Shown: one piece after another, positions 19,543-50,821 of the stretch
How positions within the stretch are numbered: position 1 is the stretch's first letter
How the letters are laid out: every line of letters starts with the position of its first letter
Assembly: GCA_963828255.1 (NCBI GenBank)
Contig: CAWHDZ010000008.1
Location: 118,203 to 182,202 of the forward strand
Direction of reading: 5' to 3'
Origin: an uncultured delta proteobacterium
GTDB lineage: Bacteria > Myxococcota > Myxococcia > Myxococcales > Anaeromyxobacteraceae
Length of the DNA stretch: 64,000 nt
Notes under the pieces: model-generated
The model's input: the letters and a program-made list of their open reading frames with translations, nothing else
The model's database searches: none
Told to the model about the DNA's origin: nothing
Translations under genes and position numbers: made by a program

Positions 19543-19589
19543 AGAAGTGCCTGGACCCGGAATCGAACCAGGGACACGGGGATTTTCAG
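19543..19589 (-). repeat. att copy 1 (3' part of tRNA-Phe), outer end of island A
   Basis: AGAAGTGCCTGGACCCGGAATCGAACCAGGGACACGGGGATTTTCAG, identical to 28051-28097 and 50744-50790. Confidence 0.96.
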
Positions 19590-19656
19590 GCCTGGTACGG
19601 GAGTGGCCAAGGCCCCGGGATCCGCTGGAGAAACGGAGGAGGCGGGAGGGGGCTGA

Positions 19657-19673
19657 AGCACATTTGTGTCAGC
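19657..19673 (+). repeat. Putative arm-type site of integrase A
   Basis: AGCACATTTGTGTCAGC; second copy AGCACATTTGTATCAGC at 27902-27918. Confidence 0.7.
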
Positions 19674-19773
19674 CGGACGCGGGGAGCGAGGGGCAGCTGG
19701 ACTTCGGGTTCGAGGACGACCGATGAGCCTCCGGGGTGACGAGAACTTCCGGTGGCACTATGCTTCCCCTGTC

Positions 19774-20040
19774 ATGAGCAGCACGGCCCGAAAGGATCTC
19801 CACGCGCTGGTGGACGCGCTTCCCGCAAGCGAGGAGCAGGCGGCGCGGCGCTACCTGGAATACCTGCGGGATGCGAGCGATCCGTACGCCAGCCTCGACA
19901 GGGTCGACCCGTTCGTGGACATGCCCGACGACGAGCGTGCCAGGCTCCACGCCTCGCTCCAGCGGGCTGAGGAGGAGATCGCCTCCGGCGATTCGACCTC
20001 GGCCGAGGATCTCGTTCGCGAGCTCCGAGCGGCGCGGTGA
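19774..20040 (+). CDS. Putative antitoxin (partner of the ParE/RelE toxin)
   Basis: 88 aa, acidic, GTGA overlap with the toxin; LHALVDALP...AEEEIASG. Confidence 0.7.
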   Translation: MSSTARKDLHALVDALPASEEQAARRYLEYLRDASDPYASLDRVDPFVDMPDDERARLHASLQRAEEEIASGDSTSAEDLVRELRAAR

Positions 20041-20333
20041 AGGTCCAGATCTCGCCGACGGCGCGGCGGCAGATCGTCGCGCTGTCTGCCTGGTGGAACG
20101 AGAATCGCAGGTCGGCCCGTGTTCGCGTCGAGGATGCGGTCGACGCGGCGGTCGGCGCCATGCGGGAGCATCCGGGGCTTGGGCCTGCCTACCCGCCGAA
20201 CCCGAGGTACCGGACATGGCGGCTCAAGGGCACGCCCTACGTCCTCTTCTACCGAATCGACGATGCCGCGGGGACCATCTGGATCATGGTCGCGTGGAGC
20301 GCCATGAGGGGTTCGGGGCCCGAGTTGCCCTGA
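20037..20333 (+). CDS. ParE/RelE family toxin
   Basis: 98 aa; VQISPTARRQI...HPGLG...PYVLFYRID...IWIMVAW. Confidence 0.8.
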   Translation: MKVQISPTARRQIVALSAWWNENRRSARVRVEDAVDAAVGAMREHPGLGPAYPPNPRYRTWRLKGTPYVLFYRIDDAAGTIWIMVAWSAMRGSGPELP

Positions 20334-20394
20334 GTTGACGCTGATGTGCCACGACACATATTGATGCCCGGGCGCCATCACCCTGGAGGTCGTC

Positions 20395-20769
20395 GTGAGC
20401 CGCAAGTTCAAGGACTTCATCCGCGAGCTCGAGGAGGAGGCCCAGCGCGAGGGTCCCCAGGCCGTCGCCGAGCTCAAGGCGTTCGACGCGCACTTCCAGC
20501 TGGCCACCGAGTTCATCCTCCTTCGAAAGCAGCGCGGGCTCACGCAGCGACAGCTGTCGACAAAGTCGGGGGTCCAGCAAGCGGAGATCAGCCGAATCGA
20601 GGGCGGGCGCGCCAATCCGACGGTGTTCACCCTGTCCGCCCTCGCTTCGGCTCTCGGCGGGGAACTGGGAATCCGGATCCGTGCAGGCAGCCGCCGACCG
20701 CGGTCCGTTCATGTGGCGCGAGGTCGTCACGCAGCACGGCAGCGACCGGTCGCGACCGGGGGGCGCTGA
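20395..20769 (+). CDS. XRE-family HTH regulator (HigA-like)
   Basis: GGAGG RBS; LRKQRGLTQRQLSTKSGVQQAEISRIEGGRANPTVFTL. Confidence 0.88.
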   Translation: MSRKFKDFIRELEEEAQREGPQAVAELKAFDAHFQLATEFILLRKQRGLTQRQLSTKSGVQQAEISRIEGGRANPTVFTLSALASALGGELGIRIRAGSRRPRSVHVARGRHAARQRPVATGGR

Positions 20770-20888
20770 CGGGAATCCGGGAAGGTCCTGGAGGAGGCCG
20801 AAACCCTGTATCTCGCTGCATGACGACGCGGGGCAGTGAGCCGCCGGGGTGATGCAAACATCCGGAGTGACACTATCCTTTCGGAGGC

Positions 20889-21005
20889 ATGGTCTTCGAC
20901 TGGCGCGAGCACATCACCGTCGACCCCGCGGTCCTCGTGAGCAATCCCGTCGTCCGCGGCATGCGGCTCTCGTCGGTTGCCCCGGCACCTCCTCGACCAT
21001 GTTAG
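20889..21005 (+). pseudogene. Truncated DUF433-family antitoxin
   Basis: GGAGG-ATG; MVFDWREHITVDPAVLVSNPVVRGMRL then loses similarity where the kinase gene ends. Confidence 0.6.
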
Positions 21006-23347
21006 GGCGACCAGAAGTCCACCTCCAGGCCGAGCCTCTTGAGCATCGCGGTGTAGCGAGGGTCTCCGTGCACACCGCGGAGAAGGGGATCGACCTGAAT
21101 CATATTGAGGCCATTGTCGCGCGTTGCGAACGCGTGCTCCAGCCACTCGAACGCACGGTCGGCCTCTCCTCTCCACGCGTAAACCTGGGCGATCTGGTAA
21201 GCCGCTGTGTCTGGACGTTCGGCGATCAGGGTGTCGAGCGCCTCCTGCGATTCCCGGGCGCGCCTCAGGCCGTGGAGGGCCTCGGCGGTGCACGTGAGCG
21301 GGAGCGCCCTTCCGCTTTGCCTGGCTGCAAACGCCAGCGCCTCTTCGTTCAGGCCGTCCGCGACCAGTGACATGCACATGTACATGCTGGCCTCCACGTG
21401 ACCGGGGCTGAGTTCGAGCGCGCGACCCAACGCCTCCCTGGCGTGAACGAAATCAGCGGCTGCCATGTACAGACGCCCCAGTATGACCAACCGATATGGA
21501 TCGAGGGGGTCGCGGTCCACCCGCACCTTCCCGGAAGCGATCGACGCCTGGATCCGCTCGGCCCTGTTCAACTTCCTGGGGTCAGTTCCTGTGGCGCTGG
21601 CATCCTTCGGCCGGAGTTCGGCCGCTCTCGCGAAGTCGGCTTCCGAACCGGGCCTGTCGAAGGCGAAGTTCCAGCGCGCCAGCCCACGAATGCGGTAGCT
21701 CTGGGGGAGATCGGGCGCAAGCGCGACGGCCTTCTCGGCGGCTGCAAGTCCCCGCTCGACCATCCCGGGCTGGCCACCGTCCGCACGGAGGTCCATGGCT
21801 GCCTGGACGATTCCTGCCCATGCCGCCGCGTACCCGGGGTCGAGCGCCACCGCCTTCTCGAAGGCCGCCATGGCTCGCCAGTGGTCCTCCATGGTTCCGC
21901 GCTTCGCGAAGTGTCGCCCAAGAAGGAGCTGCGCATACGCTTCGGGCTTGTCGGTCCGGAGCCACCTCGCATTCTGGTCCTTGTCGGGGAGCAGGTTCAC
22001 CTGGAGTGCTGTAGCTACGGCCTGGGCGATGTCCTTCTGGATGGCGAGCAAACCTTCCTGGCCCCGATCGAATGCCTGCGACCACAGGTGCGCACCGTCC
22101 GCGGCGCGGATGAGCTGGGCGGAGATCCTGAGGACGCCCCCCTCCTTCCGCACGCTTCCCTCGAGCAGGGTCTCGACGTTGAGCTTCTGGCCAATGGCGC
22201 GGAGGTCGTCGGGCTTCCCCTTGAAGGAGAACGAGGAGGTTCGCCCGATCACCTTGAGCCCCTTCACCTGCGCGAGCGTGTTCAGGATCTCCTCGGCGAT
22301 CCCGTCCCCGAAGTATTCCAGGTCCTTCCCCGGACTCATGTCCACGAACGGCAGAACGGCAACGGACGGCTTGGTCTCGGCCCGAGCCGCGTCTGCTGAA
22401 CGCCCCGCGCGATGTACGACCACGCCGACGACCACGCCACCGAGGACGACGCCGAGCCCCGCGAGCACCGCGACCCGACCCATGCGAGCTGGCCGCTCGG
22501 TGGCATGGCGCGCCTCCTGGAGGACCTCCAGCCACGCCTGACCATCTCTTGGGCGGGCCGCCGGGTCGGCGGAAGTGGCCAGGGCTATGGCTCGCTCCAG
22601 GCGTCGTGGGCGTCGCCCTCCGAGCATGTCGCCCAGCACTCGGCCTGCCGCGTACACGTCGGCCCGCTGGTCCACCTCCTCGCCCCGCGCCTGCTCCGGA
22701 GCCATGTACTTAGGGGTTCCGGCTCCGCTGATTCCCTCGGTGCCAAGCAGGTGCGCGAGCCCGAAGTCGAGGAGCTTCACCCTCCCGTCCTCGCAGACGA
22801 ACACGTTCGCGGGCTTGAGGTCCCGGTGCAGGACGCCTCGCTGGTGGGCGTGGGCGAGCCCCTTCGCCATCTCCTCGGCGATGCGCAGGGCCTCGGCCTG
22901 TGGGATCGGGCCTTCCGCGATGCGCTGCGCAAGCGTGTTCCCGTGCAGCAGTTCCATCACGAGGTAGGGACCGGCTTGGCTCGTTCCTACATCGTGAAGC
23001 GTTACGATGCAGGGGTGGTCCAGGCGCGCCACCGCCTCGGCTTCCTTCTTGATCCAGTCCGACGAGAGGTCTCGCCGAGGCCGGGACAGGCGTAGCGTCT
23101 TCACTGCCACGACCCGGTTCAACTCGGTGTCGAACGCCTCGTAGACCGCGCCGAAGCCTCCCCGCCCGACTTCGCGACGGATCTCGAAGCGGCCGAGCCG
23201 GTCGCCCGGCTGAAGCTCGTTCTTCCAGGCGTCGAGGGCGTCCTCACTGGAAGCATCGGCCAGTTCCTGGAGAAGTCGGGAGAGCGGGCCGGGCTCGCCG
23301 GCGCTCGACACGACCGCGCTGTCGCGCTGCTCCTGGCTCTCCGGCAA
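21002..23347 (-). CDS. Ser/Thr protein kinase with TM, TolB-N-like and TPR domains
   Basis: GRGGFGAVY, VAVK, HRDLKPAN, DFG, GTPKYMAPE; SVAVLPFVDMS..EYFGDGIAEEIL; TPRs. Confidence 0.93.
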   Translation of the reverse strand: MPESQEQRDSAVVSSAGEPGPLSRLLQELADASSEDALDAWKNELQPGDRLGRFEIRREVGRGGFGAVYEAFDTELNRVVAVKTLRLSRPRRDLSSDWIKKEAEAVARLDHPCIVTLHDVGTSQAGPYLVMELLHGNTLAQRIAEGPIPQAEALRIAEEMAKGLAHAHQRGVLHRDLKPANVFVCEDGRVKLLDFGLAHLLGTEGISGAGTPKYMAPEQARGEEVDQRADVYAAGRVLGDMLGGRRPRRLERAIALATSADPAARPRDGQAWLEVLQEARHATERPARMGRVAVLAGLGVVLGGVVVGVVVHRAGRSADAARAETKPSVAVLPFVDMSPGKDLEYFGDGIAEEILNTLAQVKGLKVIGRTSSFSFKGKPDDLRAIGQKLNVETLLEGSVRKEGGVLRISAQLIRAADGAHLWSQAFDRGQEGLLAIQKDIAQAVATALQVNLLPDKDQNARWLRTDKPEAYAQLLLGRHFAKRGTMEDHWRAMAAFEKAVALDPGYAAAWAGIVQAAMDLRADGGQPGMVERGLAAAEKAVALAPDLPQSYRIRGLARWNFAFDRPGSEADFARAAELRPKDASATGTDPRKLNRAERIQASIASGKVRVDRDPLDPYRLVILGRLYMAAADFVHAREALGRALELSPGHVEASMYMCMSLVADGLNEEALAFAARQSGRALPLTCTAEALHGLRRARESQEALDTLIAERPDTAAYQIAQVYAWRGEADRAFEWLEHAFATRDNGLNMIQVDPLLRGVHGDPRYTAMLKRLGLEVDFWSP

Positions 23348-23378
23348 GGCGAGCCCCCCAGGGGTGGTCCAAGGAGGC

Positions 23379-23417
23379 TAGCAGGGGGCCACCGAGGGTG
23401 TCATCCGCTCCACTGCC
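23379..23417 (-). repeat. 39-bp direct repeat, copy 1 (promoter-like)
   Basis: TAGCAGGGGGCCACCG(A/C)GGGTGTCATCCGCTCCACTGCC, one mismatch to 25533-25571. Confidence 0.88.
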
Positions 23418-23469
23418 AGGAGTTACCTGGAAGACGGTCCCGTCGAGTCTAGAACTCCAAGTCTCCCCC

Positions 23470-25356
23470 TCAACGCGGGCAGCGGAGCGAGCCAGGCACG
23501 GTGCTCGCCTTGAGCGCGGTGGCCCGGCCAGTGAGCGGGTTCAGCTTCACGTCGAGGACGGCCTCGCCCCGCTGGCAGGTCAGGAGGAAGGTCCCGCGGG
23601 TGGTCCCGTCGCCCTTCAGCGATGAGCCAACGCTGCACGCGCCGTGGTTGGCCGAGAGGCGGGCCAGGTTCTTGCGGAGCGCCCCGGCGTCCGCACCCGG
23701 CTCGAGCAGCTTGGCGGCAGCACCGTCGTCCCACTGCTCCATCAACTGTGCCCCCTCGGCGGCCGCCCTGGTCAACGGCTCGCCGGGAGGGAGCACGGAG
23801 GCGAGCTCGAGCGCCTGGATCCGCGGCGGTAGGTCCGAGGTGAGCTCGATCGACAGTTCAATGCCCCCTCTCTCGCAGGTGAGCAGCAGCCGGCCGCGCA
23901 GGGCGTTCTGGGCCTTCCCGCCCTCCGCGGGCTTGCAGGTGCCGTGCACCCTGGCGAAGCCCGCCAGGCGAGCCTCGAGCCTGTCCGGCGCCTCGTAGGC
24001 AGAGTAGTTGACGTCGAAGGCAGCCGTCGCACGCTCGGCGTTCCAAGACGTCAGGAGGTCCAGGACCGTCGCACGCGCCCGGACGAGCTGGTCCGAGATC
24101 GGCCGCGGCCGCTCCGGCAAGAGACCCCGCTCCCGCAGGCCGCTGACCAGGGCGTCCACGACGGGCCGGCCGTTGGTGTAGGTAAGGTTGGTCATCACGA
24201 AGACGCCCACGTCCTGCTCGGGCAGGAGCAGCACGAACGAGCCGTAGCCCGGGAGCCCGCCACTGTGCCGGACCACCTTCGGGAACTTGCAGTTGGTTCC
24301 GGATCCCCAGCCGAAGCCGTATCCGCCGGCGTACACTTGCAGCTCCCCGAGGTCGTTGCGCGTGGCGGCGAATGGGATAGGACGCTGGACCTCCTGAGTC
24401 TCGCGGATCGAGGCGCGCCGCACCGGGCCGGTGTCCGGCTCGTCGCGCGGGGGCCAGGCCGACAGCTGGAACGCCACCCATCGCGCGTAGTCGCGAGGCG
24501 AGGTCCACAGGCCGCCAGCGGCGGCCCATGCTCCGTCGGACAGCTCCGGCTCCTCGTGGAAGGCGTCGTCGGCATACTTCTCCAGGCCGGCAGAGGGCAT
24601 GTCCGAGCCCCTCCGCCCGTAGCCGTGTGCCTTTCGCGCCTCCGGGACCCGGGCCGCCTCCCACGTCGTGGCGCTCATGCCGAGCGGCACCAGCAGGCGC
24701 TGGGTCACGTAGTCCTGGGCACGCACGCCGCTGGTGCGCCCGATCACCCGGCCGGCCAGCGCGTAGCCCAGATTGGAGTACTCGAACTCGGTGCCCGGCG
24801 CGGTGGAGAAGGAGAAGCCCGTCGCCAGGAAGCGGTCGAAGTCGGCCTCGCTCATCGAAACGCGCAGGTCGGCAGTGGCGTTGTCCTCGGGTAGACCGCC
24901 CCCGTGCGAGAGCAACTGGCGGACCGTGATGCGGGGCGAGTCGGTGGTGAGAGAGGCGACCTTTCGCAACTCCGGGAGGTATCGCTCGGCCGGGTCATCC
25001 AGGGAGAACTTGCCCTCGTCGCGCAGCCCGAGCGCCGCCGCCCCGACGAAGGCCTTCGACATGGAGGCGATGCGGAACACCGTGTCCTGGTCCACGGGCG
25101 CGCCGCTGGTCAAGTCGCTCACTCCCCACGCCTTGAACCACGCCAGCTGGCCGCCGGTTACCAGGCCCACCGCCATGCCGGGCGCCTTCATGCCCGCCAC
25201 GGCCTTTGTCAGTGCCGGCTCCAGCTCGGTTGCCCCAGCGATCAGCCGGGCAGTTCGATCGGCGTCGCTCCAGGCCAACGGCGGAGCGGGGGAGCGCCGG
25301 GAGGAGGCCTGGGGCGAGGCACAGCCCAGACCGAGCGCCAGGAGAGCGAGGAGCAT
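23470..25356 (-). CDS. Serine hydrolase, beta-lactamase class C/PBP family lipoprotein
   Basis: LGLGC lipobox-like; FRIASMSK (SxxK), LLSHGGGL, FEYSN, HSGGLPG; start uncertain. Confidence 0.88.
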   Translation of the reverse strand: MLLALLALGLGCASPQASSRRSPAPPLAWSDADRTARLIAGATELEPALTKAVAGMKAPGMAVGLVTGGQLAWFKAWGVSDLTSGAPVDQDTVFRIASMSKAFVGAAALGLRDEGKFSLDDPAERYLPELRKVASLTTDSPRITVRQLLSHGGGLPEDNATADLRVSMSEADFDRFLATGFSFSTAPGTEFEYSNLGYALAGRVIGRTSGVRAQDYVTQRLLVPLGMSATTWEAARVPEARKAHGYGRRGSDMPSAGLEKYADDAFHEEPELSDGAWAAAGGLWTSPRDYARWVAFQLSAWPPRDEPDTGPVRRASIRETQEVQRPIPFAATRNDLGELQVYAGGYGFGWGSGTNCKFPKVVRHSGGLPGYGSFVLLLPEQDVGVFVMTNLTYTNGRPVVDALVSGLRERGLLPERPRPISDQLVRARATVLDLLTSWNAERATAAFDVNYSAYEAPDRLEARLAGFARVHGTCKPAEGGKAQNALRGRLLLTCERGGIELSIELTSDLPPRIQALELASVLPPGEPLTRAAAEGAQLMEQWDDGAAAKLLEPGADAGALRKNLARLSANHGACSVGSSLKGDGTTRGTFLLTCQRGEAVLDVKLNPLTGRATALKASTVPGSLRCPR

Positions 25357-25501
25357 GCTCGGCCGGCCGGGGTCACCTCGGGGTCTGGATGGTGGCGAGG
25401 ACCGGGTCTTGCATACCCAGCTCGACTGCTCGAGATCACGCATGGTGACGATCCTCCGGCCATCGGGTTCCGGTGGGCGAAGCCTACCTGATCTCGGCGC
25501 C

Positions 25502-25615
25502 TCAGCATGACGCGCGCCCCGCCGCCTCTCCATAGCAGGGGGCCACCGCGGGTGTCATCCGCTCCACTGCCGCCAGGATGTCGGTGATGCGAAGGCGCCA
25601 GTCCCTAGGCGGCAC
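25502..25615 (-). pseudogene. Truncated HepT/DUF86 HEPN toxin
   Basis: VPPRDWRLRITDILAAVERM, overlapping the MNT stop, is a typical DUF86 N-terminus; the Rx4-6H part is missing. Confidence 0.7.
25533..25571 (-). repeat. 39-bp direct repeat, copy 2
   Basis: Matches 23379-23417. Confidence 0.88.
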
Positions 25616-25895
25616 GGACCGCCTCGGACAGGATCTGCTGGCGCAGCTCCGGTCGAAGGCCGCCTTGCGTGACCAGGTCGACCTTGCAGCCCAGGAAGGC
25701 CTCGAGGCGATCCTGGACCTCGAAGAGGTGGAAGTAGCCGACCGGCGGGTCGAAGTCGACGAGCAGGTCGACGTCGCTTCCAGGGGCCGCCTGGTCGCGC
25801 GCCACGGAGCCGAACAGCGACAGGCTCCGGACTCCGAGCTCGCGGAGTTCCCCTGCGTGCTGGGCGATGATCTGGAGGACGTCGGCACGCCGCAT
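25605..25895 (-). CDS. Minimal nucleotidyltransferase (MntA-type antitoxin)
   Basis: LFGSVARDQAAPGSDVDLLVDF...KVDLVT (GSx10DxD). Confidence 0.92.
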   Translation of the reverse strand: MRRADVLQIIAQHAGELRELGVRSLSLFGSVARDQAAPGSDVDLLVDFDPPVGYFHLFEVQDRLEAFLGCKVDLVTQGGLRPELRQQILSEAVRAA

Positions 25896-26229
25896 GCGGG
25901 TCATCATAGGCCTCAGCCGTGTGACGGGCCAGGGTACCCAACCCTGCCCTCGACCCCTGCCCTGCGGGGTGCCCTGCGGAGAGGGCAGGATTGAGGACGA
26001 GGCGGCTGGCAGGATTGAAAGCAGGGCTGCCCTCGTAACCCCCCGAAACTCGTGCCCCGGCCCCGCCACCCTTCACCTGGCGTGCACACCGACGAACGGG
26101 GTGCCATCCGCCCGACCCCTCCCCCACGACCACCATGTGGGGAAGGGGTCGGCCGGCTGTCACCCAATGAGATTCCAGAGGGTGGATGGCGGGGCCAGGG
26201 CAAAGGGGCCGGAGGCGGCAGGGTCTGTG

Positions 26230-26258
26230 TTGCAAAGCACAAGATGTGTCTATACACT
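26230..26258 (+). promoter_or_regulatory. Sigma70-like promoter for the regulator-xis-int operon of island A
   Basis: TTGCAA-17 nt-TACACT in an AT-rich patch upstream of 26311. Confidence 0.6.
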
Positions 26259-26310
26259 AGGATAGTCATAAGAAATACTCTCAAACAAGAATGAAGGCGA
26301 GGGGAACGAG

Positions 26311-26649
26311 ATGGCTTCGAAGAAGGCGCGGGAGAAGTCGGAGGCGTTCGAGACGACGGAGAAGGTGATGCAGACGTTCCGGATACCTCGGGAGCTCGTG
26401 GGGAGGCTCCGGGCAGAGGCGGACCGGAGGGGGCTCGATCTCACCGCCTACGTCATCCGGGTCATGGGGGGCGTCATCGGGGATTTCGGGCTGCCGGAGG
26501 TCGCGAGGGTCATCCTGGACGACGACCGCGCGGCGCTCGGCATGGACCGGGAGGCTTACCTCCTGCACCTGCTCTTCCAGCGGAGCCTCGCCGTCCGCGA
26601 AGAGGGGCCCGGGTTCGACGGCCCGAGGTCCCGGAAGAAGGGACGCTGA
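26311..26649 (+). CDS. Small DNA-binding protein (ribbon-helix-helix-like)
   Basis: QTFRIPRELVGRLRAEADRRGLDLTAYV resembles RHH. Confidence 0.6.
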   Translation: MASKKAREKSEAFETTEKVMQTFRIPRELVGRLRAEADRRGLDLTAYVIRVMGGVIGDFGLPEVARVILDDDRAALGMDREAYLLHLLFQRSLAVREEGPGFDGPRSRKKGR

Positions 26650-27026
26650 TGCTGGGCGAGGTCACCGAGTCGCGCCGCTTCGGCCTGGTCACGATGTGGG
26701 TCTCGGCGACCGACGTCCGCCGGGCCCTGGGCTGCTCGCGGGCACTGGCCTACGAGCATCTTCGTCGGGCGGCGCGGCGGTCACCGGGGGAGCGGGGCCT
26801 GCTCCGGGTCCCCCTCGACGTCTGGGAGCGTTACGCCAGGGAGGTGCTGTCGTGCAGCGGATCTTCAAGCGAGGCCGGGTCTGGTACGGGTGGTTCTACG
26901 AGGACGGCCGGCGGGTGGTCCGGACCACCCGCTGCCGGGACCGCGCGGCGGCCGATAGGGTCGCCCGCCAGTGGGAGCTCGACGCCGCCGATCCGGATCA
27001 CGCGGCCGCGCGAACCGCGACGCTGA
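26649..27026 (+). CDS. Putative excisionase (HTH)
   Basis: VSATDVRRALGCSRALAYEHL...LRVP..W..Y; overlaps the integrase start. Confidence 0.6.
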   Translation: MLGEVTESRRFGLVTMWVSATDVRRALGCSRALAYEHLRRAARRSPGERGLLRVPLDVWERYAREVLSCSGSSSEAGSGTGGSTRTAGGWSGPPAAGTARRPIGSPASGSSTPPIRITRPREPRR

Positions 27027-28165
27027 CCGACGCGCTACAGCTCCTGCTCGCCCGGGACGAGGAGGAGGTCCAGGCCGGCCGGCGCAGCCCCGACACGGTC
27101 GCCTTCCACCGCTCCAAGGCAGGCCACCTGGTCCGCCTGTTCGAGACCGCCGACGGCGGCGGCCACGTCCCCTTCCCTCTCGTGCGGCTCCGCGCCGCGA
27201 ACGTGGACGGCTACGTCTCCCGACGGCGCGCCGAGAAGGTGACCGACGCCACCATCGCGAAGGAGCTCGTCGTCCTCCGAAAGTCGCTCCGCCTGGCCAT
27301 CCGCGCCGGCCTGTGGAAGGGACGGGTCGAGGAGGTCATCCCGGTGGCCTTCTCGGCGGGCTACGAGCCCCGGACCCGCGCGCTCACGGCCGGCGAGGTG
27401 GGGAAGCTCCTCCACGAGCTCCTCCCGGACCGCGCCGCGAGGGTGGCCTTCATCGTCGCCACCTCGGCCTGCTGGCGGGAGTCGGAGCTGGCCCGACGCG
27501 AGGACACCGGCGAGGGGCTCGCGACCGTGCTCCTCCGCGGGACGAAGCGGAAGACGCGCTTCCGGACCGTGCCCATCGTGAGCCCCGCGCAGCGCTCGCT
27601 CCTCGAGTACGCGGTCGAGCACGCGCAGGGAACGGGCGGCGCGGTCTTCCGCGTCTGGCGCAACGCGCGGCGCGACCTCCTCGAGGCCTGCGAGCGGGCC
27701 GGCATCGAGCGCTGCAGCCCGAACGATCTCAGGCGCACCTTCGCAAGCTGGCAGGTGGAGGCGGGCGTGCCGCTCTACCCCATCGCGCAGGCCATGGGGC
27801 ACAAGGACACGAGGATGCTGGAGCGGGTCTACGGCCGGCAGACCCCGGAGCAGCTCGCGGCGGTCATGGCGCGCGCGATGGGTTTGACGCAGGGCGTATG
27901 TAGCACATTTGTATCAGCGCCCCCGGAAACGGCGGATCCGGTGGACGCAGTGGACGACGACGCGGCGAACGCGTCTCCGGCGGCCGCGACCGAAAAGCAA
28001 AAGGCCCACCAGGATTTGCGTCCTGATGGGCCGGTGTCGGCGCGAGTTGTAGAAGTGCCTGGACCCGGAATCGAACCAGGGACACGGGGATTTTCAGTCC
28101 CCTTATCAAGGACCTCAAGGCCGCGACTTCATGTGGTTTCTCCTCGGGTCAAGCGTGCCGGGTAG
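26852..28165 (+). CDS. Tyrosine integrase A (reads through att copy 2)
   Basis: GGAGGT RBS + GTG; arm-binding-like N-terminus; catalytic set R(WRESE), K(RGTK), NDLRRTFASW, MGH, VY. Confidence 0.92.
   Translation: MQRIFKRGRVWYGWFYEDGRRVVRTTRCRDRAAADRVARQWELDAADPDHAAARTATLTDALQLLLARDEEEVQAGRRSPDTVAFHRSKAGHLVRLFETADGGGHVPFPLVRLRAANVDGYVSRRRAEKVTDATIAKELVVLRKSLRLAIRAGLWKGRVEEVIPVAFSAGYEPRTRALTAGEVGKLLHELLPDRAARVAFIVATSACWRESELARREDTGEGLATVLLRGTKRKTRFRTVPIVSPAQRSLLEYAVEHAQGTGGAVFRVWRNARRDLLEACERAGIERCSPNDLRRTFASWQVEAGVPLYPIAQAMGHKDTRMLERVYGRQTPEQLAAVMARAMGLTQGVCSTFVSAPPETADPVDAVDDDAANASPAAATEKQKAHQDLRPDGPVSARVVEVPGPGIEPGTRGFSVPLSRTSRPRLHVVSPRVKRAG
28051..28103 (-). repeat. att copy 2 (junction of islands A and B)
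   Basis: 53-bp identity with 50744-50796 (tRNA-Phe 3' half through the anticodon stem). Confidence 0.96.
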
Positions 28166-28179
28166 CAAATGGGTAGCAA
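28160..28179 (+). repeat. Putative arm-type tandem site of integrase B
   Basis: GGGTAGCAAATGGGTAGCAA, identical at 50588-50607. Confidence 0.8.
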
Positions 28180-28212
28180 GCCCCTGCTTTGGGTCGTCCC
28201 CTTCCATCTACG

Positions 28213-31116
28213 TCACGACGTTTCCGGCAGCGCGAACTTGTCGAGTATCTCCCCCAGCCGGTTCGGCTCCTTGCAGACCATGAAGGCCCAGGTCCCGAAC
28301 CCGCCGTGGTGGTTCACGGCACGCACCCACTTCTCGGCCGCGGTGTACTTGGCGCGGTCCTGCTCCTTTTCCTGGCCCTTGATCTCCACGATGAGCGTGC
28401 TGTCGGGACCGTCAGGCATCGACAGGCGTACGAGGAAGTCGGGGATGTACTTGTGGGTCGCCCCCTCCCACTCGTAGAGGACCTCGAAGTCGAGACGGTC
28501 ATTCTTCACGTACGCTTGGACGCGGTCGTTGTTCTCCAGGTGCCATGCAGCCTGGCCCTCGCCGAACTCCTGACTGTCCAGGACGACGTGGGAGACGTGG
28601 CTCTTCCAGGCTTCCTTGCATGGTTTCACCGTTCGGAACTGGACGTCGCCGGTGGACCCGGTCGGCCGGAACCTCTCGATGCGGGGCAGGATGGGTGCCT
28701 CACCGGCGCTGACGTCGGGCTCGATGGCATCCAGCAACCGTGAAACCACGTGGTCGCGGTACTTCGACAACGCGACCTCCTCCTTGTGGGCTCCCGGAGC
28801 GGTCTCGACTCGACGCTCCAGGTACTCCTCCACGATGCGAAGCACTTGGGGGAAGAGGAGCCTAGCACCCTCCTGGAGCTTCTTGGGAGGCGGCTCCACG
28901 CCCGTCGTGACGTGGCCACCGGCCAGTACCTCGGTGATGTCCCGGGCGATCTCGAACGCGGTCCGTTGGAGCCGGTGCTCCGCGTAGAACTGGTCTCGCG
29001 TGAGTGTCTCCGCCTCGCCGGTGGTCGTCTTCGCCGCCGTCCGGGCTGGGGTCCATCCCATCTTGCTTCGCGTCACGACCTGCGTCGGCTCTATCTGCGG
29101 CTCAACCTTCAGCTCGGGGACCTTGTCCACGTCGCACCTGACCCGAGCGCGCACGTCCACGACGTACCCTTCGACGCGAGGGAAGGTAATCTCGTACCCC
29201 TTCCTCGACGGCAGGGCCTGGACGAGCGTGGAGGGTGGAAGCGTCGTCGGGTCGGCCGGGCGCACTCCCTTCACCGGGATGACCTCGAACGGGACCCCGA
29301 AGATGTCGGCGTACTCCGGTTGCAGCAGGCCCGTCGCCGGGTCCACGTCGTAGTTCATGCGCCGCAGCGCCCGTCCAACGACCTGCTCGCAGAGGAGCTG
29401 TGACGAGAATGCTCGCAGCCCGAGTATCTGGGTCACGTTCTGGGCGTCCCATCCCTCGGTCAGCATGCCCACCGACACGACGGCCCGGACATCCTTGCCC
29501 GGAGGCTCCTGCCCCTCGTAACCCTCGGGCGACTTGTCCCCTGGCCAGTGCGCCTTGCCGACGGTGGCCGTCTTGACGCGGAGCTTCTGGGCGGCGTCCT
29601 CCTTCGTGCCCCCTTCCTCGGCCTCGGCCTGGGCTAGGGCCTTCGAGTCGATGCGGAAGGAGTTGTCACCTGCGAGTTCCTTGATGATGTCCCCTCGTTT
29701 GAGCGATTCCTCGATGAGCTGTGACAGCGTGGTGTTGGCCGCGACCACGATGAGCGCAGGCGGCACCGGGTACTCGCACTTCTCGAAGTAGTCGAGCGTC
29801 TCCTTCCACTTCGCTGCGAGCGTGGCCAGCGCCGGCTGTGCCTCACGCCACACGGACTCCGGCTTCGCCCTCCGCTTCGAGGTCTCGCGCTCGGAGTCGG
29901 GGAGCTTGTCCATGATGTCCCGCCACAGGCGGAAGTACTTGGGGTCGGGACGCCCCGAGTCGTCAAGGACTGGGATGCGCGGGACCTTGCAGATGCCGGC
30001 CTCGATGGCGTCCACGAGCCCGTAGTCCGACACCACCCACGGCAGCGGGTCCCCCTCCGGGTAGCCCGTGCCCTTCAGGTAGAAGGGGGTCGCCGACAGG
30101 TCAACGACCACCTTCACGCCTCGCACTGCGTTGATGCGGTCGAGCCCACCGACCCACACCGTGGCCTCCTCGGCGAACTCCTCGGCCTCTCCCTTCTCCT
30201 CCGGGGCCAGGCCTTCGAGCTCCAGCTGGCCGTCGTCGTCTTCACGCAGCGCGGGCCGGTAGGCGTGATGCGCCTCGTCGTTCAAGACGAGCAACTCACC
30301 GGACTTCCCCAGGTCTCGGTCTAGTACTCGACGCACGAAAGCTGCGTCGCTCTCCCTGCCCTTCTTCACCACGCCCCTCGTGCCGGTGTCATCCTTCACG
30401 CCGAACACGTGCCAGTTGGTGATGTGTACTCGGCCGCGGGCCAGCATGTCGCGGTAGCCCACCGGGACGATGTCGAAGCTCTCGTAGTAGTTGCCCGCGA
30501 GCTGCGGCCGGAGCACCTGGAGGCGCTCCTTGACCGTGAGATTGGGGCACACCACCAGCACTGCGTCGGTGAACCGGCCATCCTGCTTGTTGGCCAGCTT
30601 GTTGAGGATGGACCAGGCCGCCACCATCGCCATCACGGTCGTCTTGCCCGACCCGGTCGCCATCTTGGTGCAGTAACGATGCAGCGCCTTGTAACCCTTC
30701 TTCAGGGACTCCGAGTCCACAGGCGGGTCGCCGGGGACCTCTATGCCCTGCCGGTCCGCTGGCGTGGCCTCCACGAGCCAGATGAGGGTCTCGGCGGCCT
30801 CCCGCTGGGCGAAGAAGAGCGGGCGCCGGTCGGGCCGGTGCCAGTGCTCCAGAAGGTCCCTGGTGACCGGCGTGACCCCGGGCCAGCGCCGTGCTCGCCA
30901 CTCGTCCACCCGGTGACGCAGGTCGTTGACCAGCGGGAGCGGGAAGAACTCGTGCGATGCGAGGGCACCTGACACCTTCTCGGTCCTTGGGACGCCGAAG
31001 TACCCAGCCGCCCTCCGGCCGGAGACGACACGGGGCTCGGGGCCGGAGAAGTCGTAGTGCTGCTTCGGCTCCGAGAAGGGCGGGTTTAGGATGGGGTTCT
31101 CGACGGCGTTCGCCAT
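28213..31116 (-). CDS. res: Type III restriction enzyme Res subunit
   Basis: KMATGSGKT, NDEAHHAY, DLSATP, MLTEGWD, EQVVGRALRR; C-terminal YIPDF...IVEIKG nuclease. Confidence 0.92.
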   Translation of the reverse strand: MANAVENPILNPPFSEPKQHYDFSGPEPRVVSGRRAAGYFGVPRTEKVSGALASHEFFPLPLVNDLRHRVDEWRARRWPGVTPVTRDLLEHWHRPDRRPLFFAQREAAETLIWLVEATPADRQGIEVPGDPPVDSESLKKGYKALHRYCTKMATGSGKTTVMAMVAAWSILNKLANKQDGRFTDAVLVVCPNLTVKERLQVLRPQLAGNYYESFDIVPVGYRDMLARGRVHITNWHVFGVKDDTGTRGVVKKGRESDAAFVRRVLDRDLGKSGELLVLNDEAHHAYRPALREDDDGQLELEGLAPEEKGEAEEFAEEATVWVGGLDRINAVRGVKVVVDLSATPFYLKGTGYPEGDPLPWVVSDYGLVDAIEAGICKVPRIPVLDDSGRPDPKYFRLWRDIMDKLPDSERETSKRRAKPESVWREAQPALATLAAKWKETLDYFEKCEYPVPPALIVVAANTTLSQLIEESLKRGDIIKELAGDNSFRIDSKALAQAEAEEGGTKEDAAQKLRVKTATVGKAHWPGDKSPEGYEGQEPPGKDVRAVVSVGMLTEGWDAQNVTQILGLRAFSSQLLCEQVVGRALRRMNYDVDPATGLLQPEYADIFGVPFEVIPVKGVRPADPTTLPPSTLVQALPSRKGYEITFPRVEGYVVDVRARVRCDVDKVPELKVEPQIEPTQVVTRSKMGWTPARTAAKTTTGEAETLTRDQFYAEHRLQRTAFEIARDITEVLAGGHVTTGVEPPPKKLQEGARLLFPQVLRIVEEYLERRVETAPGAHKEEVALSKYRDHVVSRLLDAIEPDVSAGEAPILPRIERFRPTGSTGDVQFRTVKPCKEAWKSHVSHVVLDSQEFGEGQAAWHLENNDRVQAYVKNDRLDFEVLYEWEGATHKYIPDFLVRLSMPDGPDSTLIVEIKGQEKEQDRAKYTAAEKWVRAVNHHGGFGTWAFMVCKEPNRLGEILDKFALPETS

Positions 31117-31125
31117 GGTGGCTCC

Positions 31126-36834: not shown

Positions 36835-36932
36835 CCGTGCTGGAATCGTGTGTCTGGCGATGTCTACGGTCCTACCCACACGGTGGGACCACCGGTACGC
36901 TCCAAGTCACGACGTCGAGGAGGGAAAACCGC

Positions 36933-37502: not shown

Positions 37503-37574
37503 CCCCAATCCGCATCGGCCGCCGCCGCTCCTCCGGACCCCTTCTCGGCGAGCTCGCCGGAACGGAGGAGCAAC

Positions 37575-37685
37575 GTGCTGCCCGTCGGTCTCCTGAGTCG
37601 GGTCCTGCTGAAGAAGGTCATCATCGCCGCGCTTGTGGCGGCGGCGGAGGTCGTCATCTTGAGCGCGGGAAAGCGCAAGCGGTAG
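37575..37685 (+). CDS. Small 36-aa hydrophobic peptide
   Basis: GGAGGAG RBS, GTG start: MLPVGLLSRVLLKKVIIAALVAAAEVVILSAGKRKR; below the ORF track cutoff. Confidence 0.55.
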   Translation: MLPVGLLSRVLLKKVIIAALVAAAEVVILSAGKRKR

Positions 37686-37825
37686 TCGAGGGGCGCGTCG
37701 TCATCACGGGGCGCGCCCCGTAGTTCTCCCAGCACAACCAGCAGTTCAACCAGGCAGGGCCCCAGCTCCACGCGAGCTTAGGGCCCTTGCCATTCATGGG
37801 CGCGTCCGCGCCCGAGGAGAGCAGC

Positions 37826-38581
37826 ATGACCCCCGAGGCGAAGAAGAAGCTGTACCAGCAGCTCGCGCAGCCATTCCCGGAGGAGGCCATCGAGCGCACC
37901 GACGGCCGCCAGACCGGGCGGGGCTACTCGACCACCGGCATCAAGGCGCAGTTCATCATCAACAGGTTGAACGAGACGCTCGGCATCGGCGGCTGGCGCA
38001 CCCACCGCACGATCACGGTGAAGGAGCTCACCACCAACTCCGGTCGCAAGGCCTACGAGGCGGTGTGCGACCTCGTGCTGGAGCTGGGTGAGTGGACCGA
38101 CGGGGCGTTCGTCCCGTGCGCCGAGGCGCTAGCGGACGGCGGCCACATCTCGGTGTCCGAGGCCGACGCGAGGAAGGGCAGCTTCAGCAACGCGCTGAAG
38201 AAGGCTGCGGCGGCGTTCGGTGCCGGTTGGCAGGCTTACGCCGGGACCATCGACGACGACAACGTGCCGACCGACTCCCCGGTCCAGCCCGAGCATCAGC
38301 CGGTCTCCGCCGGGCCCACGCGGACGGTGACGACCACGCCGGTCACGCCGGCTCCGCCCAGGAACCGGCTCAGCTCGAAGCAGTTGGGCGCCATCCAGGC
38401 CATCGGTCGGAAGCTGGGGCTCGACCACACCGGGCTCCGCGCCGTGGCGAAGCAGCGGTACGGCGTGGTCCCCGAGCACCTGACGAAGGCGCAGGCGAGC
38501 GAGTTCATCGGCTCGCTGTCGGCGCAGGCGAACGGGAACGGGCACGACCACGACGACCAGGTCGACGAGATGGGGGCCTAG
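37826..38581 (+). CDS. Rad52/Rad22-family single-strand annealing protein
   Basis: GAGGAG RBS; LAQPFPEEAIE...IINRLNETLG.GGW...KGSFSNALKKAAAAFG; C-terminal helical motif LSSKQ...LTKAQASEFI. Confidence 0.82.
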   Translation: MTPEAKKKLYQQLAQPFPEEAIERTDGRQTGRGYSTTGIKAQFIINRLNETLGIGGWRTHRTITVKELTTNSGRKAYEAVCDLVLELGEWTDGAFVPCAEALADGGHISVSEADARKGSFSNALKKAAAAFGAGWQAYAGTIDDDNVPTDSPVQPEHQPVSAGPTRTVTTTPVTPAPPRNRLSSKQLGAIQAIGRKLGLDHTGLRAVAKQRYGVVPEHLTKAQASEFIGSLSAQANGNGHDHDDQVDEMGA

Positions 38582-38583
38582 CC

Positions 38584-39420
38584 ATGCCGCTCCCCGCCAT
38601 GCCCGATGGGCTGCACACGAGCATCTCGCAGATGAAGTGCTTCCTGCGGTGCCCGCGGCAGTACGAGCTCAAGTACAAGCTCGGCATCCAGCCGGCGTTC
38701 ATGCCCGTGGCGTTCGCGTTCGGCCTGAGCTTCCACGGGGCAGCAGCGGCCCTGTACTCCGAGCTCAAGGCCACCGGCAAGCTCCCGCCCCGGGAGATGC
38801 TCGTGGACACGTTCAGGGACGCCTGGAGCCGGGCATCCGAGGGCCCGCTCCCGCTCCGGGACGATGAGGACGAGCCCGTGGACTCCGGCGCGGTCACCGA
38901 CAAGGGCATCTCGATGCTCGACGTCTTCCACGCCCACGTCGCGAAGACCATGAACGGTCACACCGTCGAGGGTGTGGAGGTCCCGTTCGTGGCTGCGCTC
39001 CATGACCCGGACACGGGAGAAGTCCTCGACGAGCAACTCGTCGGCACGATGGACCTCGTGCTCCGCCACGGGGACCACCGGGTCATCGTCGAGCACAAGA
39101 CGTCGGCCAGGAAGTGGTCCGACGACCAACTCGCCTACGACTTGCAGCCGACCGGCTACAAGTTCGCGGCGCAGCAGACCGGGCTGGGTGACGTGGGGCT
39201 CCGGCTCCAGGTGGTCACGAAGACGAAGCTGCCGGTGGTGCAGGTGGCCGACGTGGAGCGTGGTCCCCGGGATGAGGACGACTTCTTGAGGACCGCCGTC
39301 GGGGTCCTGCGCGCCGTCGACGCCGGGGTCGCCTACCCGGTGCGCGGGTGGGCCTGCAAGGGCTGCCAGTTCGCCCACGCCTGCAAGCCTAAGCGGCCGA
39401 AGCTGGCGCTGGTGGCGTAG
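38584..39420 (+). CDS. PD-(D/E)XK exonuclease, Cas4/AddB-like with Fe-S cysteines
   Basis: SISQMKCFLRCPRQY, G..FH, GTMDLV..IVEHKT, QPTGY, CKGCQFAHAC. Confidence 0.88.
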   Translation: MPLPAMPDGLHTSISQMKCFLRCPRQYELKYKLGIQPAFMPVAFAFGLSFHGAAAALYSELKATGKLPPREMLVDTFRDAWSRASEGPLPLRDDEDEPVDSGAVTDKGISMLDVFHAHVAKTMNGHTVEGVEVPFVAALHDPDTGEVLDEQLVGTMDLVLRHGDHRVIVEHKTSARKWSDDQLAYDLQPTGYKFAAQQTGLGDVGLRLQVVTKTKLPVVQVADVERGPRDEDDFLRTAVGVLRAVDAGVAYPVRGWACKGCQFAHACKPKRPKLALVA

Positions 39421-46790: not shown

Positions 46791-46850
46791 GACGAAAGTT
46801 TGGAGCAGGATTTCGCCCTGTGGGAAGAGCGGCGATTGCCGCCAGGAGCT

Positions 46851-47825: not shown

Positions 47826-48154
47826 ATCGTTACCCCGCTTACCGACAATTCAGACATCAAATCAATATGGGGACTCGGAGAGCTGGTGCCAGGTGGACGA
47901 GACCGCGTAGCGGTTGAGGCCCCTGCTGAAGATGCACCTCTCCGAGTCCCCTGATGTAGAGGGACGACGGAATGCTCCGGAAGGTGCGGACCAGCCGAGT
48001 CCAGTGAGATCCAACTGGCTGGGACCTGAACCGTCCGAAGGTGAAGACGCACTCCAGTCCGGACAATAGCCGGGGGTCTCTCAAGTGCGCCGCGGTCAAT
48101 GACCGCCGCGAGGAATCTTGCCTCACTACCCGGTCGGTCTATCGTGACGCACGG

Positions 48155-49012
48155 ATGGCCCGTGTTACGCCCCCCATGACCATTTCTGGTATCGAGGCCC
48201 TGCTCAGGCGCGCGAGGTTCTTCACCTCCGTCGAGCCCGGCTACATGGAAGACGCGACCAGTGAAGGGGTGTTCACGGCGTTCTTGGGGCCTGAACTGGA
48301 ACAAGAGTTCCTGGCCGACGTCCGGACCTTCCTTGGCGGCCGAGAACGCGACCTGGAGGACACCGAAGTCGAGAAGGTCATGACGGACCTTCTTCTCCGG
48401 CGTCTTCGTGTTGATGGGGAGATTACCGTCGAGTGCGGGCCCGGGTACTACTACGACCGCGACGAGCCCTCGATGCCCGACTACGTCGTTCTTACCGTTC
48501 GTCTTAAGTGGCCCAAGACGTCGGGGAAGAAGCGGAAGAAGAGCGCGAAGACGAAGTCGGCCGTCGAGAAGAACTCCAGGAGCTCCAAGAAGGCCCAGGC
48601 CCGGACTCCTTCCGGCTCGTCCGAAGAGGAGCGCAGGATTGTTCTCCAGCGCGGCGCGGAACGTGAGCGCTCTAGACGACGGCGAGCAGGAGCAAGAACG
48701 GCCAAGCTCCTAGCCGGCGATGAGGTTCGCGTCGGGAGAGTCGGCTACACGCGCAAGGTGTGGGACAGCGCCTTGCAGCAGAAGGTCTGGGCGCCTACAC
48801 CGGGGGCCGAAAAGGTGATGCGCGAGGTCGACCGGGTTTGGGGAAAGTCCATCCACACCGGGGCTGACCTTGCGGCGCACCTCGACTCCCGGGGGATGAA
48901 GTCTCTCAACGGGAAGCGATTCACGAGAAACATGATGACCGCGTTACTTCGACACCTGGCGCGCCTTCGTCGGAGCGGAGCCTTTGCCCGTCACGATGAA
49001 CCGACCAGGTGA
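48155..49012 (+). CDS. Hypothetical protein with C-terminal recombinase-type DNA-binding motif
   Basis: LAAHLDSRGMKSLNGKRFTRNMMTALL resembles the serine-recombinase DNA-binding (Recombinase) motif; no catalytic domain seen. Confidence 0.6.
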   Translation: MARVTPPMTISGIEALLRRARFFTSVEPGYMEDATSEGVFTAFLGPELEQEFLADVRTFLGGRERDLEDTEVEKVMTDLLLRRLRVDGEITVECGPGYYYDRDEPSMPDYVVLTVRLKWPKTSGKKRKKSAKTKSAVEKNSRSSKKAQARTPSGSSEEERRIVLQRGAERERSRRRRAGARTAKLLAGDEVRVGRVGYTRKVWDSALQQKVWAPTPGAEKVMREVDRVWGKSIHTGADLAAHLDSRGMKSLNGKRFTRNMMTALLRHLARLRRSGAFARHDEPTR

Positions 49013-49374
49013 TGTGGGACCATCTGGCGCGTGACCAAGCAATCAGCGCCGACCACGAAAACCGACGGGCGATCTCGGCATCAGGATAGAGGCGCCTTCC
49101 TCTGCGCGTCGGGCACGCTCCTCCCCGTGCACGCCCAAGTCGTCCCGATGCCTTGGATGACGACGAGGTATCCGTCCCCCCAGGCCGGTGACGAGCGGCA
49201 ACTGCGACGTCATGTAGGCCGAACAACAGTTCATCGTGATCGCGGGGGCGGGCATCGCCGCCCCGCCCGTACCCGGCGGTCTCGGTCAACAAGTCGGTGC
49301 CGATCCGACGATGACGATGGCCCAGCGGAGCCCGAGTCCCCGGACACAACTCGGGAGTTGGGCTGGGGGCGGCC

Positions 49375-49794
49375 ATGAAGCCGCTCCTCACCGTTACCGA
49401 GGTTGCCGCGGCCCTCGGCGTCCACAAGTCGGTCGCCTTTCGCGAGGTTCACGCCCACATGGTCCACGTCATCGTGGGCATCAATTCCATTCGGGTTCCG
49501 CAGGCATCTCTCGACGCCTATCTTATGAGAAGGACGAAGGAGCCAACATGGCCAAGCGCTGCGGGGATCGGATCTACCAAAAGAGGAAGGGCGCCACCTG
49601 GTACGGCTGGTACTACACCCCCGACACCGGCGACCGCGTCGTCGTCTGCACCCACACACGAGACCGGCACGCCGCCAAGCTCCTCCTTGCAAAGACAGAG
49701 CGAGACGCATTCGAGGCCTACGCTACGGGCCGTCCAGCCGCGAACCGCGCCGCGGGCAGCCACACCGTCGCCGAGGCCCTCACGCAGTTCGTGA
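49375..49794 (+). CDS. Putative excisionase (HTH_17)
   Basis: LLTVTEVAAALGVHKSVAFR...IRVPQASLDAYL; overlaps the integrase. Confidence 0.75.
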   Translation: MKPLLTVTEVAAALGVHKSVAFREVHAHMVHVIVGINSIRVPQASLDAYLMRRTKEPTWPSAAGIGSTKRGRAPPGTAGTTPPTPATASSSAPTHETGTPPSSSLQRQSETHSRPTLRAVQPRTAPRAATPSPRPSRSS

Positions 49795-50810
49795 CGCTCG
49801 GGGGCTCCGATTTCCGGGCAGGCACCTGGCACATGGTCGGCGTGAAGGCCGGTCATCTCCTCAGGCTTCTCGGCGCGAAGCAAGTAGGGGCACTCGTCGT
49901 CGATGACATCCAGACCTACATCGAGGCCAGACTGGGCGAGGGCGCGGCTCGGGAAACTTGCCGAAAGGAATTATCGGTGCTCCGGCAGGTCCTGAAGCTC
50001 GCCCAGGACCGAGGGCGGCTTCGCCAAGACCCGAGGTTCCTCTTTCCCCGCTTCCGGGTCCGCTACACTCCGAAGGAGCGATACCTCACCAAGGCCGAGG
50101 CCCAGGGGCTCTTCCAGAAGCTTCCGCAGAAACGTCGGCTCTGGGTTCTGCTGGCCGTCACCTTCGGGGCTCGGCTCTCCGAGGTGGAGTCGGCACGGTG
50201 GGAGGACATCGATCTCGACGGCTGCTGGGTGCGGCTGCGCGGGACAAAGACGTTCGGGTCCGACCGGCACATCTCCATCCCCGCCTCTGTCGTGCCGATC
50301 CTGGAGGCCTTCGAGGGCAAGAGCGGTCCCGTGGTGGAGCGCTGGCTCAACGTCCGTCGCGATCTCGCCGACGCCTGCCGCCGGGCCGGGATCCCCACGG
50401 TCACGCCGAACGACCTTCGTAGGACATTCGCCTCGTGGATGAAGCAGCAGGGCGAGGACTCGGCCGTGGTGGCCAAGCTCATGGGCCACTCCTCCACGCG
50501 GATGGTGGATCTCGTCTACGGAAAGCTGAACGAGGAGAACTACCGGACGGCCGCCCGGCGGCTGCCGAGCCTGGATCTCCCGGAGCCGGGTAGCAAATGG
50601 GTAGCAAAACCGGCGCGAACTGGGAGAACCGGGAGAGCCAGGAGAAGGTCGGCGGCGACCATCACCTCAGGCACTCCGGGAGCAGAAAACATTGAGACCC
50701 AGGGGACTTTGCAGTCCACTGGGCCTCTGATGTTCGATCAAGAAGAAGTGCCTGGACCCGGAATCGAACCAGGGACACGGGGATTTTCAGTCCCCTGCTC
50801 TACCAGCTGA
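49548..50810 (+). CDS. Tyrosine integrase B (reads through att into the antisense of tRNA-Phe)
   Basis: AAGGAG RBS; GARLSE, RGTKT, TPNDLRRTFASW, LMGHSS..MV..VY. Confidence 0.94.
   Translation: MAKRCGDRIYQKRKGATWYGWYYTPDTGDRVVVCTHTRDRHAAKLLLAKTERDAFEAYATGRPAANRAAGSHTVAEALTQFVTLGGSDFRAGTWHMVGVKAGHLLRLLGAKQVGALVVDDIQTYIEARLGEGAARETCRKELSVLRQVLKLAQDRGRLRQDPRFLFPRFRVRYTPKERYLTKAEAQGLFQKLPQKRRLWVLLAVTFGARLSEVESARWEDIDLDGCWVRLRGTKTFGSDRHISIPASVVPILEAFEGKSGPVVERWLNVRRDLADACRRAGIPTVTPNDLRRTFASWMKQQGEDSAVVAKLMGHSSTRMVDLVYGKLNEENYRTAARRLPSLDLPEPGSKWVAKPARTGRTGRARRRSAATITSGTPGAENIETQGTLQSTGPLMFDQEEVPGPGIEPGTRGFSVPCSTS
50695..50728 (-). terminator. Island-B-supplied hairpin downstream of tRNA-Phe
   Basis: Minus strand GAGGCCCAGTGGACT-GCAA-AGTCCCCTGGGTCTC followed by AATGTTTT. 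Confidence 0.6.
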
Positions 50811-50821
50811 GCTATCCAGGC
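50749..50821 (-). tRNA. tRNA-Phe (GAA)
   Basis: GCCTGGATAGCTCAGCTGGTAGAGCAGGGGACTGAAAATCCCCGTGTCCCTGGTTCGATTCCGGGTCCAGGCA folds as a cloverleaf; CCA not encoded. Confidence 0.97.

Follow-up and report, generated by a model that had tools for sequence, protein, structure and literature searches.

Tyrosine integrases that acquire a new C-terminus on integration are known in the Myxococcota from the phages Mx8 and Mx9, in which the phage attachment site (attP) lies inside the coding sequence and integration creates a new 3' end (excerpts of PMC6070905 and PMC4383910). Here we describe a similar arrangement in two genomic islands, A and B, situated in tandem at one tRNA-Phe gene of an uncultured delta proteobacterium of the Anaeromyxobacteraceae. 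They lie within a window of 64,000 nucleotides (nt), positions 118,203 to 182,202 of contig CAWHDZ010000008.1, from whose first letter all coordinates are counted unless another sequence is named. As in Mx8, where the small excisionase gene uoi (4991-5215 of Mx8) overlaps the start of int (from 5085/5208), a small and likely excisionase gene overlaps the start of each island integrase. However, IntB is only 26% identical to the Mx8 integrase over 243 amino acids (aa), IntA has no significant match to it, and the target here is tRNA-Phe, whereas the Mx8 attachment (att) core resembles the tRNA-Asp site of this genome. Judged from sequence, the A and B integrases work like that of Mx8 but stand outside its clade. 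The tail swap by itself is Mx8-like and has been familiar from that phage for decades; the new part is a motif on such a tail that resembles those binding the beta clamp.

Motifs of the latter type have been described in transposases (IS1634, peptides of IS5, IS30, IS66, IS91, IS200, IS1380 and ISL3, Tn7 and the Tn3 family) as a short Q-L-x-L-F-type sequence, usually in an unstructured C-terminus and readily gained or lost (parts of PMC3971601, PMC4549789 and PMC11417375). Those transposases always carry the motif, whereas here it is found on a site-specific tyrosine integrase and is predicted only in the attP form or when one A-type element is integrated behind another. About half of the copies here also differ from the transposase motifs in having F at position 4. 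Another relevant group is the archaeal SSV-type 'suicidal' integrases, with att inside the integrase gene, for which the portions of PMC8371274 available discuss chimeras made by the integrases of several resident elements. In those enzymes the catalytic C-terminal part is split off on integration; in the present ones the catalytic domain remains intact, and the swap affects only a tail some 90 residues beyond the Tyr. Lastly, the Islander tandem arrays, 125 among 3,919 islands, have an integrase and a tRNA fragment of their own in each member and a crossover in the anticodon loop. In the accessible sections of that paper (PMC4383910), overlap of integrase and att is handled only as a filter exception and tail exchange between members is not discussed.

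The features on which the comparison is based are the following.

19543-19589: att copy 1, the tRNA-Phe 3' half up to the anticodon loop, at the left end of island A
19590-28097: island A, 8,508 bp
28051-28103: att copy 2, the A/B junction, an exact repeat
28098-50790: island B, 22,693 bp, GC content 65% against 72% on the flanks
50748-50821, minus strand: intact tRNA-Phe(GAA) gene, with att copy 3 at 50744-50796
26649-27026, plus strand: small open reading frame (ORF) that overlaps the start of intA but is read in a different frame, no Pfam match, likely excisionase by position
26852-28165, plus strand: intA, tyrosine integrase, likely start GTG 26852, 437 aa
49375-49794, plus strand: HTH_17 ORF overlapping the intB start (E 1.9e-5, under the curated cut-off), likely excisionase
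49548-50810, plus strand: intB, tyrosine integrase, start ATG 49548, 420 aa
19654-19672, plus strand: outer arm of island A, a putative arm-type repeat
27899-27917, plus strand: arm-type repeat of island A within intA
28161-28179, plus strand: outer arm of island B, an arm-type repeat in which the B tail has its stop codon
50589-50607, plus strand: arm-type repeat of island B within intB
19495-19524, minus strand: terminator-like hairpin 3' of the displaced tRNA 3' half (z -5.8)
28003-28032, minus strand: terminator-like hairpin in A, antisense to the intA linker (z -4.7 for 27988-28054)
19589-19726, plus strand: 45-aa attP tail of IntA, open and in the integrase frame, which would join IntA in the excised circle
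28097-28165, plus strand: 22-aa attP tail of IntB, at present read by IntA
19604-19618, plus strand: conserved WPRPR motif at a fixed distance from the crossover, with a related motif in B at 28116
19694-19711, plus strand: QLDFGF, close to where the attP tail ends, resembling beta-clamp-binding motifs

An earlier reading of the window from its letters alone (hereafter the sequence-only reading) had noted three copies of the tRNA-Phe 3' end, and these were recovered as exact blocks, copies 1 and 2 being identical over 47 nt (19543-19589 and 28051-28097) and copies 2 and 3 over 53 nt (28051-28103 and 50744-50796), with no other copy of the att core in the whole genome. The block common to all three stops at the anticodon loop (19583-19589, 28091-28097 and 50784-50790), where the crossover likely takes place. 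Arm-type repeats pair 19654-19672 with 27899-27917 in A, and 28161-28179 with 50589-50607 in B; since the repeat inside each island's integrase gene matches that at its far end, the assignment of far ends to integrases is confirmed. Each member of the tandem has its own integrase and its own tRNA 3' fragment in the same orientation, and the order of arrival of A and B cannot be deduced from this layout. The records of relatives are titled Anaeromyxobacter or Anaeromyxobacteraceae.

The two integrases, with PF00589 matches of 41.2 and 58.1 bits (cut-off 27.1), share 35% identity. The catalytic set of tyrosine integrases is R-K-H-R-H/W-Y; among 85 homologs K232, R295 and H317 were found in 85/85 and Y327 in 83/85, and the first His position is occupied by Asn in both IntA and IntB. 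The catalytic Tyr of IntA is at 327 and the crossover comes after residue 415. The int gene is free of stops across the inner arm, the terminator, the tRNA 3' half and the crossover itself, and each int gene covers one terminator-like hairpin on the tRNA strand. Both proteins cross the att core in the same reading frame and carry the tails which the sequence-only reading had given them. Past the crossover the frame runs on into the tRNA for 6 aa, into the outer arm of the element itself for 45 aa (A) or 22 aa (B), or into the arm of a neighbor. Present IntB accordingly consists of 414 aa up to the crossover and a 6-aa tail off the tRNA antisense strand, and present IntA of 415 aa and a 22-aa tail derived from B. 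The 45-aa frame that had been put forward as the tail of excised A (19589-19726) is indeed open and in the frame of the integrase. All three proposed tails were seen on IntA relatives, namely the tRNA tail in three that lie directly at the tRNA in the same genus (L021, L022 and L028, 93-99% identity), the B-type tail in P0003 and P0042, and the A-type tail in L042 (same genus, 93-99% identity), L126 and P0022. Cognate pairs were also found: L050 and L058 are single islands in which a B-type integrase goes with a B-type far end, and in L061 the far end that accompanies an A-type integrase bears the motif.

The uncut attP form is represented by an IMG/VR record of 45,992 bp (G130) with a 127-bp terminal repeat, terminase, head and tail matches, no tRNA and one att core. 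Its integrase, 56% identical to IntA, reads across att to a WPRPR tail, with matching arms on both sides, and a small gene overlaps the integrase upstream. This record is a circular phage with an uncut attP. No close phage relative was found in the GenBank phage set, where none of the matches listed exceeded about 26%.

Because open frames are cheap in GC-rich DNA, relatives were surveyed for in-frame read-through of att, as the sequence-only reading had proposed, with the catalytic domain only as query over about 245 loci (L021-L266), copies in the genome itself excluded. This gave 39 distinct integrase ends, six of which had no att within 700 nt or lay at a contig end. Out of the remaining 33, two were shifted and 31 shared the frame of att, 28 of them open all the way and three with an earlier stop; one row was a duplicate, which makes it 30/32. 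The spacers between integrase and att vary from 99 to 282 nt, with many different lengths that are multiples of three. Each of the two alternative frames lacks stops in the 198 nt upstream of att in just 6/35 sites. The reading frame of int relative to att is selected, and in-frame crossing of att is the rule for this integrase family.

The 45-aa tail of A ends in GQLDFGFEDDR, i.e. the motif, then EDDR and the stop. Clamp-binding motifs follow the consensus Q-aliphatic-x-[L/M]-[F/L] or Q-aliphatic-x-[L/M]-x-[F/L] with acidic flanks (excerpts of PMC11139829), and of the features tested, the tail motif shares with known ones a place near a flexible C-terminus and an acidic flank. Its recurrence was examined in att junctions from 92 family genomes and 90 metagenome stretches (pattern ending at the crossover), together with viral and genome scans (pattern requiring TGGCC). 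An A-type arm, recognized by DNA pattern alone, was present in 46 out of 185 non-tRNA att sites. When these were reduced to 32 representatives at 90% identity, the motif was in frame and open in 21, one base off in two and absent in nine; with 24 representatives at 80% identity the numbers were 15 in frame, one in another frame and eight absent. Shuffles gave a chance rate of 0.0007 per frame, and only 3 of 1,933 coding-like host frames carry the motif within their last 25 aa. It is located past the arm, starts 98, 101 or 104 nt beyond the crossover (in the set defined by WPRPR) and is followed by a stop 9 residues after the Q in 13/21 copies and 8-10 residues after it in 17/21. The motif alternates between five- and six-residue forms, and its codons vary while the Q, L/M and hydrophobic positions hold.

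A structure model that pairs the host clamp with the A tail reached a score of 0.68, and the best of three controls one of 0.00; the pass mark was reached by about 116/157 solved and about 2/215 mismatched pairs (own alignments used). The runs share at least 54% of contacts, and the partner has a predicted local distance difference test (pLDDT) value of at least 45. Tail residues 35-42 are placed against clamp residues 173-178, 250, 255, 328, 352-354 and 372-375, which matches both pocket subsites named in the available part of PMC11139829. The clamp-like motif, missed by the sequence-only reading, would give the tail swap a specific candidate function; the observation made in that reading is confirmed, and its interpretation is partly supported.

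Taken as a whole, A and B are two related elements targeting tRNA-Phe, and the C-terminal residues of each integrase are set by whatever DNA follows the crossover. There seems to be an even chance that the tail of excised A carries a motif for the host beta clamp, as predicted, that likely favors integration and is exchanged on insertion for a six-residue tRNA stub. A more far-reaching version, quite possible though tentative, is that of a clamp tether switched by the integrase's own recombination, in which the free element would be directed to the fork, insertion would delete the tether and the arm of a tandem neighbor would decide the outcome. Under the former scheme, a free circle of A would make the long-tailed IntA, whose tail is basic and which might, like several transposases, dock on clamps at the replication fork or in its wake; this long form would be the better integrating enzyme. 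Integration would then replace the tail by six tRNA-antisense residues, and the presumably weaker stub form would help the element to stay put. As a by-product of tandem insertion, the upstream integrase reads the attP tail of its neighbor: in the window IntA has received the basic tail of B, which lacks the clamp motif, and an A-type integrase behind another A-type element holds a clamp-motif tail even when integrated. Transposition of IS1634 rises with a stronger clamp motif, according to the passages of PMC4549789 at hand. If the scheme is true, the use of the clamp would extend from transposases to a site-specific integrase, directionality could be controlled without an extra gene, tandem neighbors could change each other's enzyme, and the tail form that is cloned would matter for such integrases as tools in Myxococcota. 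In addition, the molecular role of a swapped tail becomes approachable here, as a short motif with a named and purifiable partner. The literature searched yielded no integrase tail for which a clamp motif is described, a search that leaves most subscription journals outside its coverage and by its choice of words misses variants; the word 'integrase' is absent from the text available for PMC11139829 and PMC4549789.

A number of points weigh against this explanation. The motif pattern used, Q-[LM]-x-[LF]-x-[LF] or QLSLF, was written after the tails had been seen, and the strict consensus is fitted by only 10/21 copies, the other 11, including that of the window, having F instead of L/M at position 4. 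The motif is furthermore confined to a subgroup: it occurs in only 21/61 arms of the wider WPRPR-defined set and in 0/13 B-type arms, and there is no match to it in the Mx8 Int or in the tail of G130. Since only a subgroup has it, being absent from the circular phage, B and Mx8, it is dispensable for the life cycle of the family. The model result may stem from likeness to solved clamp-peptide complexes, and the whole tail evolves close to neutrally, with a ratio of non-synonymous to synonymous polymorphism (pN/pS) of 0.85 over codons 1-28 against 0.89-1.04 in five other frames; a pN/pS of 0.61 in the motif window comes from rows that had been selected for the motif and carries no weight. The first catalytic Arg is present in IntB, while its counterpart in IntA is C207 in one alignment and R209 in another. 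The relatives are not independent of one another, and a tally of the best 120 of 637 protein matches is biased by a query that contained the tail; in this tally 92 proteins cross att in the integrase frame, eight do so in other frames and 20 fall short (13 stop earlier and seven lack the catalytic end), and the 92 in-frame proteins have the tRNA stub in 72 cases, WPxPR-type tails in 13, B-type tails in two and other tails in five. Finally, none of the sequencing runs contained more than 0.44 of the words tested, and contigs of 4 out of 24 listed runs over 19000-28600 gave no joint between att copies 1 and 2 among the joints listed, a test limited by the shortness of the relatives' contigs and the 47-nt core.

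Among other explanations, the one that survives best, although rather unlikely, is an Mx8-like swap in which the clamp plays no part: the basic RPR tail would alter activity or stability, and the QLxFxF end would do something else or bind too weakly. Most tail types do lack the clamp motif, RPR stands at a fixed place common to A, B and other tails with R in 32/32 encoded by five codons, and in Mx8 integration alters both the Int C-terminus and site use (excerpts of PMC6070905). On the other hand, the motif stays in frame just before the stop while it alternates between pentamers and hexamers that use different codons, which is hard to explain without a partner of that specificity, and the model seats the motif in the canonical clamp pocket.

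Quite improbable is the cross-element switch that the sequence-only reading had suggested, i.e. that an outer arm has been selected to re-tail the integrase of its neighbor and so control the latter's mobility. Fusions of the right type do recur, as an A-like integrase with a B-type tail is found in the window, P0003, P0042 and probably L138, A behind A in L041, L042, L126 and L255 (L042 and L126 could instead be circles), and a WPxPR tail on one B-like end in L117; a non-tRNA tail occurs in 20 of the 92 in-frame proteins among the best 120 of 637 matches. Yet tandem insertion gives such fusions automatically, the cognate pairs in L050, L058 and L061 fully account for every arm's tail as the attP tail of its own element, no sign of adaptation to a neighbor was found, and some of the 20 proteins may be free circles. 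The change of tail by a neighbor as such follows from the geometry, and it recurs in other genomes.

Weaker still is the view that the frame is kept merely for a quick stop in the tRNA antisense strand, and that at high GC content the tails arise passively from DNA sites, which we regard as very improbable. It is true that of the three frames only that of the integrase terminates inside the tRNA, and that the tail pN/pS is near 1. Codons 1-3 of WPRPR (W-P-R) are almost without synonymous change, while the last P and R vary synonymously, and because of these near-invariant codons the W-P-R stretch probably serves as a DNA site. An integrase that stopped short of att would nevertheless do equally well, and 28/33 ends remain open; the in-frame motif past the arm, in 21/32 against about 0.001 by chance, is also left unexplained. 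The last alternative, that the integrated left junction expresses the tail frame separately as a small clamp-binding peptide starting at an in-frame GTG at 19547, is extremely doubtful: the frame is open from this GTG to 19726 and in many arms with the motif no integrase lies immediately upstream, but left junctions lack one by geometry, no promoter-like site was seen in 19300-19900 (a weak test in a GC-rich genome), and fusions of integrase and tail are present in assemblies (L042, L126 and P0022).

Besides the tails discussed above, a third type, short and basic with WPSPR followed by Arg/Lys, occurs in L255, L208, L247 and L204, which are titled Myxococcaceae or delta proteobacterium and include one tandem. 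In two other relatives, P0033 and L031, QLALF is found in the linker upstream of att, where a clamp-like motif would persist in both states. The host has two clamp genes that are 93% identical (G000:C6:32605-33732 and C10:16503-17630), in an assembly rated 6.6% contaminated. As for the integrase itself, the IntA clade has C, N, S or E at the position of the first catalytic Arg of IntB (27470-27565, IntA residues 207-238), and R236 and R238, next to K232, are invariant in the A clade and possibly represent a relocated catalytic arginine.

Left of att copy 1, an ORF at 18053-19726 crosses the copy and was considered as a third integrase, but it was rejected as it holds only an HATPase_c fragment, with an alcohol-dehydrogenase fragment nearby. 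The flank at 19482-19592, which borders these HATPase and dehydrogenase fragments, is 95% identical to the 3' end of IntA over 111 nt and either comes from the host or is what remains of an older element. An empty site was not found, the sequence left of tRNA-Phe differing between genomes of the same genus.

Other genes predicted in the islands are listed here.

20037-20333: ParE-family toxin, island A
20395-20769: helix-turn-helix (HTH) protein, island A
21002-23347: Ser/Thr kinase-TPR protein, island A
23470-25533: beta-lactamase-family gene, island A
25605-26069: nucleotidyltransferase, island A
28213-31116: ResIII protein, island B
31126-34158 and 34201-34962: methyltransferases, island B

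The beta-lactamase-family gene of island A is bracketed by a 39-nt direct repeat (97%) at 23379-23417 and 25533-25571. Island B also codes for DUF932, Rad52/22, PD-(D/E)XK and HNH proteins, and in its stretch at 28213-39420 the ResIII protein and the two methyltransferases are accompanied by a block of DUF932, Rad52/22 and PD-(D/E)XK.

Other integrases of this genome end in different ways at their tRNA genes. Those at tRNA-Met (C40) and tRNA-Lys (C15) end before the tRNA, while that at tRNA-Pro (G000:C3:87453-88334) reads 109 codons past the domain, through the entire tRNA antisense strand. In a second tandem-like array, at tRNA-Asp (G000:C17:46876-55181), two integrase ends that are 98% identical read the att core in a different frame. 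The distal integrase is truncated, and both run from the catalytic Tyr into the terminator within a few codons.

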